This document shows positions 20,654 through 40,640 of a stretch of DNA of 46,037 nucleotides, one piece after another. The stretch lies in sequence record PZ445465.1. One strand, written 5' to 3'. The notes beneath the pieces were generated by a model that saw only the letters and a list, made by a program, of their open reading frames with translations, was not told where the DNA came from and did no database searches. Both the position numbers and the translations under genes were made by a program. The stretch is from a phage. How positions within the stretch are numbered: the stretch's first letter is position 1; every line of letters starts with the position of its first letter.

Positions 20654-21024
20654 ACATGCTTGAGCTGGTTGATGCATATCTTCAGGATGCAGGATTGTAT
20701 GATGGCTGGACTTCGCAGTTGCAGTTCTGGAACGACACCGGAGATGGCAACGAGCAATTTATTGTTCTGCAATCCAATGGTGGCACGCAGGTGATGGACG
20801 GCCTCGGCGGTGACTTCTATTTCTCGCTGTACGTTGTTGGGAAACAAGGCCAGTACAATGTTGCTGATGTCGACGCTAAAGCCAATGAGATTATCGAATA
20901 CATCAAGACACATCCGATTGATTCATGCGTGAACTACATCCAGTTGCAGGCTCCTCTCGGACGACCAATGTTGACGGAGGAGAAGCGCCCTGTGCATGAG
21001 TTGCTTTTGCGGGTTGTGAAATAA
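20650..21024 (+). CDS. tail terminator / neck protein (putative)
   Basis: 124 aa, last gene before a terminator and the major tail gene; start GTG 20650 or ATG 20656. Confidence 0.35.
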   Translation: MNMLELVDAYLQDAGLYDGWTSQLQFWNDTGDGNEQFIVLQSNGGTQVMDGLGGDFYFSLYVVGKQGQYNVADVDAKANEIIEYIKTHPIDSCVNYIQLQAPLGRPMLTEEKRPVHELLLRVVK

Positions 21025-21078
21025 ATAAAGCCGCACGAAGCGGCCTTATTGCTGGTTTAAGCATTGCCAGCATGCTTT

Positions 21079-21144
21079 CTTAATATCCAGCCCCGTAACC
21101 CATACATACCCCTACATATGATTGCGATAATGCTGGATATTAAG
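21079..21144. repeat. perfect 13-bp inverted repeat (CTTAATATCCAGC / GCTGGATATTAAG) separated by 40 nt
   Basis: read directly; a second small hairpin GCCGG-N9-CCGGC lies at 21155-21173; located in a ~0.65 kb region of low coding potential. Confidence 0.6.
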
Positions 21145-21688
21145 TGTTGTGGTGGCCGGTGCTGATATCCGGCATAAGGCGCTTATTCGGCGGCGTCGAG
21201 CTTGCTTATTCGCTTGAGCCATCCTCGTGAGTCAGCCACGTCCCACTGCGCATCAGCCTGCGCATTCACCACAACGGAAATAGCACTGGATAACCAAGCG
21301 CGCAGACTCTTCACGATTATCTGCTCAATGCTCTTACCTGTTGTGTGCCACGTTTCGTGTGGCTTACGGCAACGACATTACCTGGTTATTCGCTGCACCC
21401 TTGAGGGATTTACTAAGGCGACATGCCCGTTGTTACCCACGAATGAGAGTACTGTCTTCGAGCAGACTTTGCGCGCAAGAACGACGATCAATCACAATAC
21501 CCTCATTTGTGGGTGCCCATTATTAATCACAGCGGGCCACTGCGCCGAATTTGCTTACAAGGAATCGGAAGACCTTGCTGACTTACAGGCTATTACGCCG
21601 CCATCAGAACAACATCATCGTTTGCATTTATCTTTGTGGTCAGTTTCTAAAAAGTCCGCAAAGTCGCTTACGAAAACCATCTGAAATA

Positions 21689-21733
21689 CAATCTACACCA
21701 CAAAATAATCACTGTCAACACCTGTGATATAAT
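21689..21733 (+). promoter_or_regulatory. promoter of the major tail gene: CAATCTACACC motif, TGTCAACACC, extended -10 TGATATAAT
   Basis: motif 21689-21699; TGATATAAT 21725-21733; GGAGA RBS and ATG 21770 downstream. Confidence 0.5.
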
Positions 21734-21769
21734 CACCACGTTAGCAGCTAACACAATTCGGAGATCGAA

Positions 21770-22486
21770 ATGGCTATTTGTGCAAATGATAAAGGCGTTC
21801 TGGTCGGTCGCATGACCAGACTGTTCCTTGCTGAAGGGTGCGGAGACGCAGTTCCGGAGGCGGGAGACTGGAAGTATTTAGGCTCAACCACCAGTAAGGG
21901 TGTTGACTACTCGCCGCAGACTACCACGTCGGAGGCAGATACCACTGGCGGTTTTGTTTCCACTCTCGTTACCAGCTCTGATATGACCATCAGCGCAGAG
22001 GTGGAAATCCGCAAGAATGACCCGAGCGATGAGTTTGGCTTCCATCGTCTGGTTGAGATTTACGCCACCGAACTGAAAGCTCGTCGCCAGCCTTCCTTGT
22101 GGGTGCGTCAGGTGACTGGTGCGACTATCGTTACGGCGTATTGCAACATCACCAGCATCAGCTACGAAGGTGGTACGAACGATATCGTTACTGGCAGCCT
22201 TGAGTTCAAGGTTTACGATTCTGATAGCGTTACCGTCGAAAGCCTTGAGCCTCTGGCATTCACTACAGACCTGCCATCAACTGGCACGGCTGGCAGCCCG
22301 TTAACTGTTGCTGTTGAAGGTGGTGTCGCTCCTTACACTTATGTATGGCGCAAAGATGGCGTGGTTGTCGGCAGCGAATCAGGCGCGTCTCTGGCAAGCC
22401 CTGCCGCTGGCGTGTATACCGTCACGGTGACTGATTCGTCTACTGACCCTGAAATTATTATCAGCACGGCTTGCACTGTGTCCTGA
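21770..22486 (+). CDS. major tail protein with C-terminal Ig-like domain
   Basis: 238 aa; C-terminal GGVAPYTYVWRKDG...AGVYTVTVTDS is Ig-like; flanked by a strong promoter and a terminator. Confidence 0.65.
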   Translation: MAICANDKGVLVGRMTRLFLAEGCGDAVPEAGDWKYLGSTTSKGVDYSPQTTTSEADTTGGFVSTLVTSSDMTISAEVEIRKNDPSDEFGFHRLVEIYATELKARRQPSLWVRQVTGATIVTAYCNITSISYEGGTNDIVTGSLEFKVYDSDSVTVESLEPLAFTTDLPSTGTAGSPLTVAVEGGVAPYTYVWRKDGVVVGSESGASLASPAAGVYTVTVTDSSTDPEIIISTACTVS

Positions 22487-39240: not shown

Positions 39241-40194
39241 ATGAGATATGACTGGAAGGAAATCGAGCCAAAAATGATCGGCAACTGGCAGGCTGCCATC
39301 ATGTCTATCGTCAATGTGGATAGCAGAGTTTTCAATGGCAAGCACCAGCCATGCCCTCATTGCATGGGGGTTGACCGGTTCCGTTGGGATAATCACTTCG
39401 AAACAAAAGGCGATGGCGGCGCAATCTGCAATCAGTGCGGTTCCGGCAGCGGCATGAATTGGCTGATGAAACTCTCCGGAATGAGCTTTCCTGAAGCGCT
39501 GGAGGCGCTTGGTGGATTCCTGAACATGCACCCGCGCGAAAAGCTGGAGGCAATCAGGAAGGAGCTACCGAAGATAAATTATAGCGATGACTTCATCACT
39601 GAGCAGGAAGTCGCCGCAATAATGGCTAAAACGACTCGTGTCGCGATGAATGAGTGGACTTTGATAAATGGTATTGGTTGCGACGTTAACGTCACCAGAG
39701 GCAAATCTGGAGAACTTATTGCGGTTGAGATGATGCGAGCTGACACAATGAAACTGTGCAACGTGGCATTCATTGGCATGGATGGTGATTCAATCAGAAC
39801 GTTTTTCCGCGCAGGATACAACAAGGACTCAGCCATCAACGGCAAACTCACGCGCGGCGCGATAAGCCCAATCGGAGAAGACAACGGGAAGTTCATTTAC
39901 CTGGTATCTGATTATGCCGATGCGTGGAAGTGCCATTACTTCACTGGCGCGCATGTCTGGTGCTGCTGGTCGCCGGAAAACATGTGGGAAGTGGTGCGCT
40001 CTGTTAGCAATGAGATGAAGTCACGGTTACGCTGCATAGTTAATTATAAATTTGACGAACTTTGCGCTGCGGAAAACGCAGGGATTCCGGTGATGCTTCC
40101 TGATGATGCCGACACTATCAGGATGGCAAAGAGAATCAGGAGAAAGATTTATGACGCTGGCGAGTTGATAGAAAAAATGTCAGTCAACAGATAA
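39241..40194 (+). CDS. DNA primase (zinc-ribbon plus Toprim-like)
   Basis: CPHCMG...CNQCGSG zinc-binding motif typical of phage primase N-termini; start ATG 39241 after AAGGG. Confidence 0.65.
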   Translation: MRYDWKEIEPKMIGNWQAAIMSIVNVDSRVFNGKHQPCPHCMGVDRFRWDNHFETKGDGGAICNQCGSGSGMNWLMKLSGMSFPEALEALGGFLNMHPREKLEAIRKELPKINYSDDFITEQEVAAIMAKTTRVAMNEWTLINGIGCDVNVTRGKSGELIAVEMMRADTMKLCNVAFIGMDGDSIRTFFRAGYNKDSAINGKLTRGAISPIGEDNGKFIYLVSDYADAWKCHYFTGAHVWCCWSPENMWEVVRSVSNEMKSRLRCIVNYKFDELCAAENAGIPVMLPDDADTIRMAKRIRRKIYDAGELIEKMSVNR

Positions 40195-40195
40195 A

Positions 40196-40225
40196 AGAAA
40201 CCCTCCATATGGAGGGTTTTTTGTT
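40196..40225. terminator. bidirectional rho-independent terminator
   Basis: CCCTCC-ATAT-GGAGGG followed by TTTTTTG. Confidence 0.6.
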
Positions 40226-40640
40226 ATTTCTTGAACTCTGGTGCTTCAGTCCAGAAGGCTACATTTCGCAGAGACTTACTCGTGTGATTGCACCAGTATA
40301 TTCCTGAGTCATCATACTTGGCAGTAACCTTGACGCGATCAGTATCAATAATAACAACCTCCTGCCCATCTTTAGGGTCGAAAAGACGCGCATCCTTCCA
40401 GTTAGCAATCTCATTAAGGGAAAGAAGAACATAGCCTGGAAGATAAGCGCCGACATCAGCAATGTGAACTATTGTTCGCTCCGTTCTCTCTCCTGTGTAG
40501 TCGCCATTCCACTCATAAAGAATAACCGTGTCTCCAACCTTAAAATCACGATCGTTCTTCCTTAGTTCCGCCTTCTTGTGTCCGGTAACAACAGGCCAGA
40601 AGTGCTCAGGTAAGATTTTTAGTTCGTGTGTTTTGCTCAT
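40224..40640 (-). CDS. ASCH/PUA-like domain protein
   Basis: KILPEHF...GHKKAELRKNDRDFKVGDTV pattern typical of the ASCH domain. Confidence 0.55.
   Translation of the reverse strand: MSKTHELKILPEHFWPVVTGHKKAELRKNDRDFKVGDTVILYEWNGDYTGERTERTIVHIADVGAYLPGYVLLSLNEIANWKDARLFDPKDGQEVVIIDTDRVKVTAKYDDSGIYWCNHTSKSLRNVAFWTEAPEFKK

Follow-up and report, generated by a model that had tools for sequence, protein, structure and literature searches.

A minus-strand operon of small structured RNAs between the head-tail and tail genes of a siphophage carries a candidate tmRNA-derived element complementary to host tmRNA

The window analysed here, the whole 46,037-nucleotide phage sequence PZ445465.1, is a siphophage genome in which the region under study is 99.8% identical to that of Escherichia phage SusanneMuster_Bas79 (Bas79). 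This region lies between the last of the head-tail connector genes (stop at 21024) and the major tail gene (start at 21770). A preliminary description, made from the letters alone, had singled out about 0.65 kb of low-coding DNA marked by a perfect inverted repeat, and had named a structured non-coding RNA, a cis-acting packaging or replication element and a decayed gene as candidates. All of the sequence features that it listed lie where it placed them, and of its candidates the structured RNA has stood and the other two are unsupported. We find that positions 21020-21718 are a minus-strand operon of small structured RNAs, complete from promoter to terminator (Table 1). The core of this operon is an element that we term module c, which joins a segment resembling the messenger part of transfer-messenger RNA (tmRNA, SsrA) to a 5' arm with predicted complementarity to host tmRNA. 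The preliminary description was right about a leftward promoter and right to doubt the long open reading frame (ORF) of the region, but it missed the minus-strand unit and its core, which lies on the opposite strand beneath that ORF.

The leftward-pointing promoter motif is a near-consensus sigma-70 promoter, identical in sequence in five relatives, with a predicted transcription start at about A21682; equivalent TTGACA promoters lie upstream of module c in the Felix O1-like phage Sf16 and in Aeromonas phage pIS4-A. At the far end, the hairpin previously noted as terminator-like is indeed followed by a T-run, and the same hairpin closes the unit behind the tRNA genes of relatives. Host RNA polymerase would be expected to transcribe the operon from TTGACA-17-TAGATT and to stop at the hairpin at 21044-21030. 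Between these ends the minus-strand order is module c, X1, module d, X2, module a, a 13-base-pair hairpin and a small hairpin. We read the unit on the minus strand because of its promoter and terminator, because G.U wobbles occur that pair on this strand only, and because relatives carry tRNA genes on the same strand. The 661-nucleotide minus-strand RNA folds better than its shuffles (z = -3.8).

The operon is the tRNA-less version of a small-RNA and tRNA operon sited at the same place in relatives, in which tRNA genes (Ser, Arg, Met, Ile) stand on the minus strand before the same terminator hairpin. ARAGORN found no tRNA or tmRNA gene in the window or at the module in 30 related loci. The neighbouring tRNAs of relatives include an Arg-UCU tRNA and tRNAs with CAU and AAU anticodons; AGA and AUA are rare codons, and their scarcity triggers tmRNA tagging. 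Such surroundings would suit an operon concerned with stalled ribosomes. Among phages the modules are exchanged in cassette fashion, and in the tRNA arrays of unrelated phages they are always on the tRNA strand.

Module c contains a reading frame laid out, on direct reading, as the tag frame of Escherichia coli tmRNA is. The phage frame, GCA AAC GAU GAU GUU GUU CUG AUG GCG GCG followed by UAA UAG, would encode ANDDVVLMAA; its E. coli counterpart, AUAGUC GCA AAC GAC GAA AAC UAC GCU UUA GCA GCU UAA UAA, encodes ANDENYALAA. No start codon opens the phage frame, and an in-frame UAG lies 24 nucleotides upstream. In the upstream context, which sets the frame in tmRNA, AUAAAU or GUAAAU stands before GCA in 50 of 52 arm variants (AUAGUC in E. 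coli), and tmRNA positions -5 and -4 (U-5 and A-4 in E. coli) are functionally important. A permissive Rfam scan of the region returned tmRNA families only, on the minus strand, with tmRNA_permuted best at 28.5 bits (E = 0.0018); in the N4-like phage EC1-UPM the tag region matched tmRNA_permuted at 33.7 bits, likewise below the gathering threshold. No tRNA-like domain was detected by ARAGORN, and across the whole 46-kb window Rfam gave no other tRNA or tmRNA signal at E <= 5. Module c would on this showing be a tmRNA derivative that keeps the messenger half only, a reading that we hold jointly with the explanation as a whole and judge to be evenly balanced.

The tag frame is clearly under coding-type selection. 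Among 130 copies of module c from unrelated phage families, we found 35 nucleotide versions and 20 peptide variants, every one with all 10 codons and a stop, which may be TAA, TAG or TGA. The peptides follow the consensus A-N-[DES]-[DENST]-x-x-[LMR]-[MAVI]-[AV]-A, to which a single AP ending is the exception, and ANDDVVLMAA alone is written in seven synonymous nucleotide versions. Single-nucleotide codon differences fall 498, 95 and 951 times on codon positions 1, 2 and 3 across the 130 copies, as pairwise counts that are phylogenetically non-independent. At one related locus (L015), a substitution silent in the tag frame introduces a stop into the overlapping AUG frame.

The structure around the frame is conserved as well. 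In an alignment of 18 diverse copies of module c, 95.4% of the cells are paired and 11 of the 23 pairs show compensatory changes; none of 500 shuffles reached the observed pairing and covariation, and slid controls were 24-45% paired. An analogue of tmRNA helix 5 forms around the final tag codons and the stop, its CUGA/UCAG becoming CUGG/CCAG with both sides changed in four sequences. Two pseudoknots follow. In pseudoknot a, compensatory changes affect all four pairs of the second stem and three of the five pairs of the first, and in pseudoknot b stem 1 is supported in the alignment while, on direct reading, the pairing of stem 2 is kept by six different sequences. Upstream of the tag we considered an equivalent of tmRNA pseudoknot 1 (CUUUG/CAAAG) and dropped it, the register not being kept in the N4-like variants. 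The segment at this place, where tmRNA has pseudoknot 1, is the antisense arm.

This arm is predicted to pair colinearly with nucleotides 54-106 of E. coli tmRNA (true ssrA sequence). The target runs from the 3' half of pseudoknot 1 through the A-rich linker and the resume codon to tag codon 6. The predicted helices are GGUUUUCGU with ACGAAAACU (tag codons 3-6, of which codons 3-5 are faced by the arm segment GUUUUCGU), GCGACU with AGUCGC spanning the resume codon, two helices at the 3' strands and loop of pseudoknot 1 (UUGCGG with CCGCAA; CUUUUUAGA with UC(G)UAAAAAG), and CUGACC with GGUUGG. RNAduplex scores the pairing at -41.9 kcal/mol, against -28.3 +/- 3.1 for dinucleotide shuffles, of which 1 in 200 did as well. 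For the arms of an N4-like phage, a lambdoid prophage and a P1-like phage, no shuffle in 200 matched the duplex, and the target is the same. As a control, the arm reaches -24.0 kcal/mol against its own messenger region. In RNAcofold the hybrid is the minimum-energy dimer (ddG -13.4 kcal/mol). An alternative was also considered, in which the arm is homologous to the 5' part of tmRNA (the strand of D-loop and helix 2a, about 70% matched by eye). We rejected it as a functional reading since two pairings are poor: the arm reaches only -16.2 against the tmRNA 3' region, and the tmRNA's own 5' part reaches only -21.4 against nucleotides 51-112.

The predicted complementarity to this defined tmRNA site is unusual and is conserved among homologues. 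Fifty-two distinct arms fall into two classes. All 44 members of the main class pair with a stretch beginning at nucleotide 49, 54 or 56 and ending at 105 or 107, two of them extending to nucleotide 129, over 34-42 base pairs. The second class comprises eight shorter arms of different sequence (for example GCGUCUAUUUU), five of which pair best with nucleotides 76/79-107. All 52 arms have the seed GUUUUCG, against a background of varying phage tag codons 3-6. This retention is partly built in, GTTTTCG having been part of the search pattern; in the independently aligned set UUUUCG(U) is kept in 16 of 18 sequences. At positions -3 to -1 the phage has AAU where the host has GUC, a difference that would spare the phage's own template from its arm. 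As a separate observation, the loop ACGAAAC of module d resembles host tag codons 3-5 (ACGAAAAC) and is complementary to the arm seed UUUCGU; it could conceivably act as an internal mimic of the arm target.

Modular matches to parts of the region were obtained in 696 phage records. Module c itself occurs in the siphophage group of the window, in N4-like phages and Ackermannviridae, in Sf16 (inside a tRNA array, with its own TTGACA promoter), in Erwinia phage Faunus, a Klebsiella phage, a P1-like phage and pIS4-A, and in lambdoid prophages between the Q antiterminator and the holin. It is present in 124 of 5426 complete E. coli genomes, where a feature is never annotated under it; in phage records anything annotated there is a hypothetical protein. 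Searches of Rfam and of the literature library used, which also covered two-piece tmRNA in phages and antisense to tmRNA, returned no paper containing the tag strings and no family or description of such an RNA. Module c is a widespread phage RNA, previously undescribed and apparently derived from tmRNA, for which a plausible mode of action can be put forward.

We propose that the phage RNA may dock on host tmRNA, mask the host resume codon and offer its own template, a sequence of events to which we assign a likelihood that approaches, and at best equals, an even chance. The arm would seed on the single-stranded messenger region of host tmRNA and then zip into pseudoknot 1, covering the host resume codon. 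The phage resume codon would then lie 12 nucleotides past the duplex; in the host, about 11 nucleotides separate pseudoknot 1 from the resume codon. Ribosomes rescued by host tmRNA-SmpB would in this way gain ANDDVVLMAA and not ANDENYALAA; as a minimum effect, the pairing would block host tagging. The docking model is attractive in that it explains three features together, namely an apparently translated tag frame without initiation, the lack of a tRNA-like domain and the presence of a guide arm. Hybrid formation in vivo and template substitution are what we infer from these features. Tagging by tmRNA, with the degradation that follows, can limit phage propagation upon ribosome stalling (PMC6207430).

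It is tempting to speculate that module c is a guide-plus-template RNA that reprograms ribosome rescue in trans, in effect a split tmRNA whose tRNA-like half would come from the host and whose messenger half would be viral. We offer this tentatively, at somewhat less than an even chance, and the same joint claim holds that the cassette would be mobile across siphophages, N4-like, Felix O1-like and P1-like phages, Ackermannviridae phages and lambdoid prophages. For the explanation taken whole, in which a minus-strand RNA operon includes a tmRNA-derived module c whose arm acts on host tmRNA to substitute the tag, the chances appear to us about equal either way. Trans-translation is near-universal in bacteria, and the tag decides the fate of the proteins of stalled ribosomes. 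If the explanation is true, a viral RNA that blocks or rewrites the tag would be a new phage route to host quality control and a natural case of tmRNA using a template supplied in trans. It would also explain conserved "non-coding" gaps in many well-studied phages, among them those in the lambdoid late leader, in P1-like phages and in Felix O1-like and Vi1-like tRNA arrays.

Several observations weigh against this explanation. The tmRNA_permuted (RF04321) score at module c, 28.5 bits, lies below the gathering threshold of 47, and the beta_tmRNA score is 17.2 against a threshold of 84; no Rfam match reached its gathering threshold at module c in 17 loci. Plain pairwise alignment with E. coli ssrA was not significant (score 25, against 21.9 +/- 3.3 for shuffles). 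Among the eight short arms, three score best elsewhere or beyond the site (nucleotides 316-358, 190-225 and 38-106), and the short-arm duplexes of Sf16 and Faunus are weak, being equalled by 29 and 7 of 200 shuffles. Sharing a common origin, the arm variants are non-independent tests, and one shuffle in 200 did match the duplex energy of the window. Across Enterobacterales, Erwinia and Aeromonas the target stretch hardly varies. That agrees with a conserved arm, but it leaves coevolution of arm and target uninformative; differing targets are found in Yersinia proxima (AUAAUUGCAAACGACUCGCAAUAC) and Haemophilus (GACGAACAAUAC). The energy model ignores the cost of opening pseudoknot 1. At the level of mechanism, resumption by a ribosome on a template merely base-paired to tmRNA has no known precedent, and the gain from a swap is unclear given that phage tags still end in a hydrophobic residue followed by A-A or V-A.

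A first alternative is that the RNA is only an antisense inhibitor or decoy, pairing with host tmRNA (perhaps as an RNase III substrate) or titrating tmRNA-binding proteins, with the tag an untranslated relic. The arm does cover the host resume codon, no new ribosomal mechanism would be required, and a precedent exists in mycobacteriophage DS6A, whose RNA consists of the tRNA-like domain alone and is a tmRNA fragment inhibiting tmRNA (PMC4131195). A relic, however, would not be expected to conserve the AUA context at -6 to -4, nor to keep exactly 10 codons and a stop through 35 nucleotide versions that differ mainly by third-position or synonymous changes, nor to maintain a helix-5 analogue and both pseudoknots through compensatory change. 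We consider inhibition alone, though the simpler reading, unlikely, if still deserving of serious attention.

A second alternative keeps the template function and seeks the acceptor within the phage: module c would be the coding piece of a split tmRNA, joined by a phage tRNA-like RNA such as module a. Natural two-piece tmRNAs exist, the best Rfam match is to the permuted family, and tRNA-like modules with acceptor, D and T arms do lie in the same operon. Yet module c occurs without module a in Sf16, the locus L039, the P1-like phage and others, and we found no complementarity between the two modules. Module a, moreover, has a complete 9-base-pair acceptor stem of its own, without G3.U70 and with no CCA encoded, and neither ARAGORN nor Rfam detects a tmRNA tRNA-like domain in the window. 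A phage-encoded acceptor seems improbable to us.

We hold it to be just as improbable that the operon is an array of structured or tRNA-derived RNAs unrelated to trans-translation, its tmRNA likeness and complementarity being by-products of past recombination with ssrA. Such an array would be in keeping with the cassette-like shuffling of the modules and with the fact that modules a, d and X and the 13-base-pair hairpin have no assignable function, but it leaves unexplained both the coding-type selection on a start-less frame and the conservation of the arm towards the host despite divergence of the phage's own tag.

Plus-strand protein genes, as listed in GenBank, or a cis-acting packaging or replication site can safely be set aside, since the modules sit at unrelated genome positions in other phages, including the lambdoid late-operon leader and tRNA arrays, and their helices covary as minus-strand RNA. 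The ORF at 21202..21684 is present as described, a TTG-initiated plus-strand frame of 160 amino acids with no evident Shine-Dalgarno sequence upstream, and its coding conservation, a possibility raised in the preliminary description, was not borne out: indels and stops break the frame in phage Bas78, a relative of 95% identity, where codon positions 1, 2 and 3 have 7, 5 and 8 substitutions. No ORF of the region, this or smaller, has a Pfam match above cutoff or a PHROG match, in agreement with the low-coding character first noted, and we rejected all of them as protein genes. GenBank lists three plus-strand hypothetical-protein coding sequences in each of Bas79 (Bas79_0053-0055) and Bas78 (Bas78_0055-0057), and different ORFs are annotated across the region in other relatives; the six named coding sequences are very probably spurious. 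A decayed gene is likewise unsupported, given that the helices covary, as covariance analysis across related phages confirmed, and that the short tag frame is under coding selection.

Setting guide-plus-template docking beside known systems clarifies what would be new in it. With one-piece tmRNA, module c shares the GCA resume codon, AUA at -6 to -4, a start-less 10-codon tag beginning AN[DE] and ending in a hydrophobic residue and A, a stop inside a helix-5-like hairpin, and H-type pseudoknots that follow. It differs in having no acceptor stem with G3.U70, no terminal T arm, CCA, helix 2 or pseudoknot 1, in its length of ~170 nucleotides with a spacer stem behind it, in carrying an arm antisense to tmRNA itself, and in its sub-threshold Rfam score. 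The two-piece, permuted tmRNAs (RF04321 and the alpha-, beta- and cyanobacterial families) have nearly the same tag-proximal consensus, CAAAaccaUAAaUGCaAACGAuAA, and likewise have a messenger part that is an RNA separate from the acceptor function. The precursor of a permuted gene has its acceptor piece immediately upstream, paired by way of helices 1 and 2, whereas here that place is taken by a promoter whose predicted start (~21682) leaves only ~55 nucleotides before the resume codon and no acceptor piece.

Papers from the tmRNA database group list phage-borne ssrA only for mycobacteriophages, such as the Bxz1 group, and for Bacillus phage G, and DS6A has the tRNA-like domain only (PMC4131195, PMC11915505). 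Like these, module c would be a phage-encoded derivative of a ribosome-rescue RNA, and DS6A is a precedent for interference with the host system by a partial tmRNA; the known examples are either complete or the tRNA-like half, whereas module c has the appearance of a messenger-only half with a targeting arm. Its hosts also differ from those of the Bxz1 group, G and DS6A, being phages and prophages of Enterobacterales and Aeromonas. The operon resembles phage tRNA clusters in its niche, strand, promoter-to-terminator layout and modular shuffling, and its relatives do carry Ser, Arg, Met and Ile tRNAs; the copy in the window differs in having structured and tRNA-like modules only, without a canonical tRNA. 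Another kind of phage and prophage RNA, the trans-acting antisense RNAs directed at small RNAs (anti-sRNAs), recognises a host non-coding RNA through a seed at the 5' end and long, imperfect complementarity. Module c shares the 5' seed and the imperfect pairing, and differs from these in its target, tmRNA, and in the fused translatable template. None of module c, the X stems and the tRNA-like module a is represented by an Rfam family.

Table 1. Features of the minus-strand RNA operon, in order of transcription (window coordinates)
Feature	Position	Strand	Description
Sigma-70 promoter	21690..21718	-	-35 TTGACA 21718-21713, 17-nucleotide spacer, -10 TAGATT 21695-21690; 10/12 matches
Module c	~21682-21513	-	~170 nucleotides; tag frame, helix-5 analogue, two pseudoknots, 5' arm
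Guide arm (predicted)	21638..21678	-	GGUUUUCGUAAGCGACUUUGCGGACUUUUUAGAAACUGACC; 41 nucleotides, colinearly antisense to E. coli tmRNA nucleotides 54-106
Messenger part	21590..21637	-	12-nucleotide A-rich linker ending AUAAAU; resume codon GCA 21625-21623; stops UAA 21595-21593 and UAG 21592-21590
Helix-5 analogue	21578..21607	-	CUGA...UCAG; encloses last tag codons and stop
Pseudoknot a	21545..21577	-	stem CAAGG/CCUUG; loop CCGA pairs with downstream UCGG
Pseudoknot b	21513..21544	-	stem CGCAGU/GCUGUG; loop GGCCC pairs with downstream GGGC; conserved loop GAUUAAUAA
X1	21436..21513	-	20-base-pair spacer stem, one A.C mismatch, 38-nucleotide cassette-like loop
Module d	21346..21435	-	structured segment ending in hairpin GCCAC-ACGAAAC-GUGGC (21369-21351)
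X2	21270..21345	-	spacer stem-loop CACAACAGGUAAGAGCAUUG...CAGUGCUAUUUCCGUUGUG
Module a, tRNA-like	21146..21275	-	9-base-pair acceptor-like stem GUUGUGGUG/CACCACAAC; D-arm 21263-21248; variable 73-nucleotide middle
13-base-pair hairpin	21079..21144	-	inverted repeat of the preliminary description; 40-nucleotide G-rich loop
Small hairpin	21051..21071	-	GCUGG-N11-CCAGC; before the terminator here, before tRNA genes in relatives
Bidirectional intrinsic terminator	21020..21045	-	GCCGC-UUCGU-GCGGC then UUUAUUUAUU; hairpin and T-run at 21030-21044

The perfect 13-nucleotide inverted repeat, CTTAATATCCAGC (21079-21091) and GCTGGATATTAAG (21132-21144), with 40 nucleotides between its arms, is the feature on which the preliminary description had centred. 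It is real, and we estimate that chance would place only ~0.0015 perfect 13-base-pair inverted repeats within 100 nucleotides per 1 kb, but it proves to be a minor element of the operon, an RNA hairpin that is conserved and sits close to the 3' terminus. Phage DS8 has a compensatory U:A to C:G change, and BUCT_XGG_PSM_3377 and the locus L038 each show a G.U wobble, which the opposite strand would turn into a C-A mismatch. The loop (21092-21131, minus strand) contains a 10-nucleotide direct repeat, GGGGUAUGUA / UGGGUUAC..., of which DS8 has one more unit, making four G-tracts; an RNA G-quadruplex is conceivable there.

The second hairpin previously reported, GCCGG-N9-CCGGC at 21155-21173, is also present and is the T-arm-like hairpin of module a, GCCGG-AUAUCAGCA-CCGGC, with a loop of 9 nucleotides. 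The D and T loops of module a, GCUGAU and AUCAGC, can pair with each other; they have changed in concert in DS8, to GUCGA and UCGAC, and other variants have G.U pairs. Neither ARAGORN nor Rfam calls module a a tRNA, and it lacks the canonical cloverleaf with an anticodon arm, a 7-base-pair acceptor stem and a 7-nucleotide T loop, having in their place the 73-nucleotide middle, the 9-base-pair stem and the 9-nucleotide loop. Another tRNA-like element lies ~100-170 nucleotides upstream of module c in Salmonella phage SW16-7, on the RNA strand (GGCGAGG...GUGUGGUUCGAUUCCACAC CCUCGCCA); it has a canonical T arm and acceptor stem and no recognisable anticodon arm, and ARAGORN does not report it. Module d is kept in Bas78, BUCT_XGG_PSM_3377 and Bas81, and the stem of its hairpin covaries, being GCUCC/GGAGC in the locus L028.

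The X stems are of ~20 base pairs with a bulge or an A.C mismatch, and follow module c in most families, with compensatory changes. In Bas78 the loop of X1 (the 21474-21436 region) is replaced by unrelated sequence while the stem arms are kept, which looks like cassette exchange. A long-range pairing of GACUUUGCG with CGCAAAGUC in this loop was dropped, not being conserved where the loop cassette differs. We also considered the X stems as integron attC-like sites, but by our reading their core motifs are a poor match, and an integrase is absent; our guess is that they are processing or insulating spacers between modules. Phage lambda (strain lambdaS3243) has an X2-type stem-loop, CACAACAGGUAAGAGCAUUG...CAGUGCUCUUUCCGUUGUG, ~90% identical to window positions 21345-21270, directly 3' of the 6S RNA terminator tR' and ~400 nucleotides upstream of gene S. 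We know of no description of this conserved element in the lambda late leader. In a lambdoid prophage (L008, 7921-7967, minus strand), the spacer-stem loop after module c matches the type I hammerhead family RF00163 at 24.7 bits, against a gathering threshold of 34 (E = 0.0012), with all of the core bases present (CUGACGA...GAAAC...GUC). This match suggests that spacer-stem loops can carry self-cleaving cargo.

Two further observations concern the surroundings of the operon and a distant part of the window. The major tail gene appears to have an extended -10 promoter (TGTGATATAAT, 21724-21734, plus strand), which stands back to back with the -35 element of the RNA operon and nearly overlaps it, so that the two promoters may compete. 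Elsewhere, positions 40055-40256 gave a cluster of weak Rfam matches (RsmY, rimP leader, Phe leader and rnk leader; E = 0.6-4.6), and this stretch is probably rich in hairpins and terminators.

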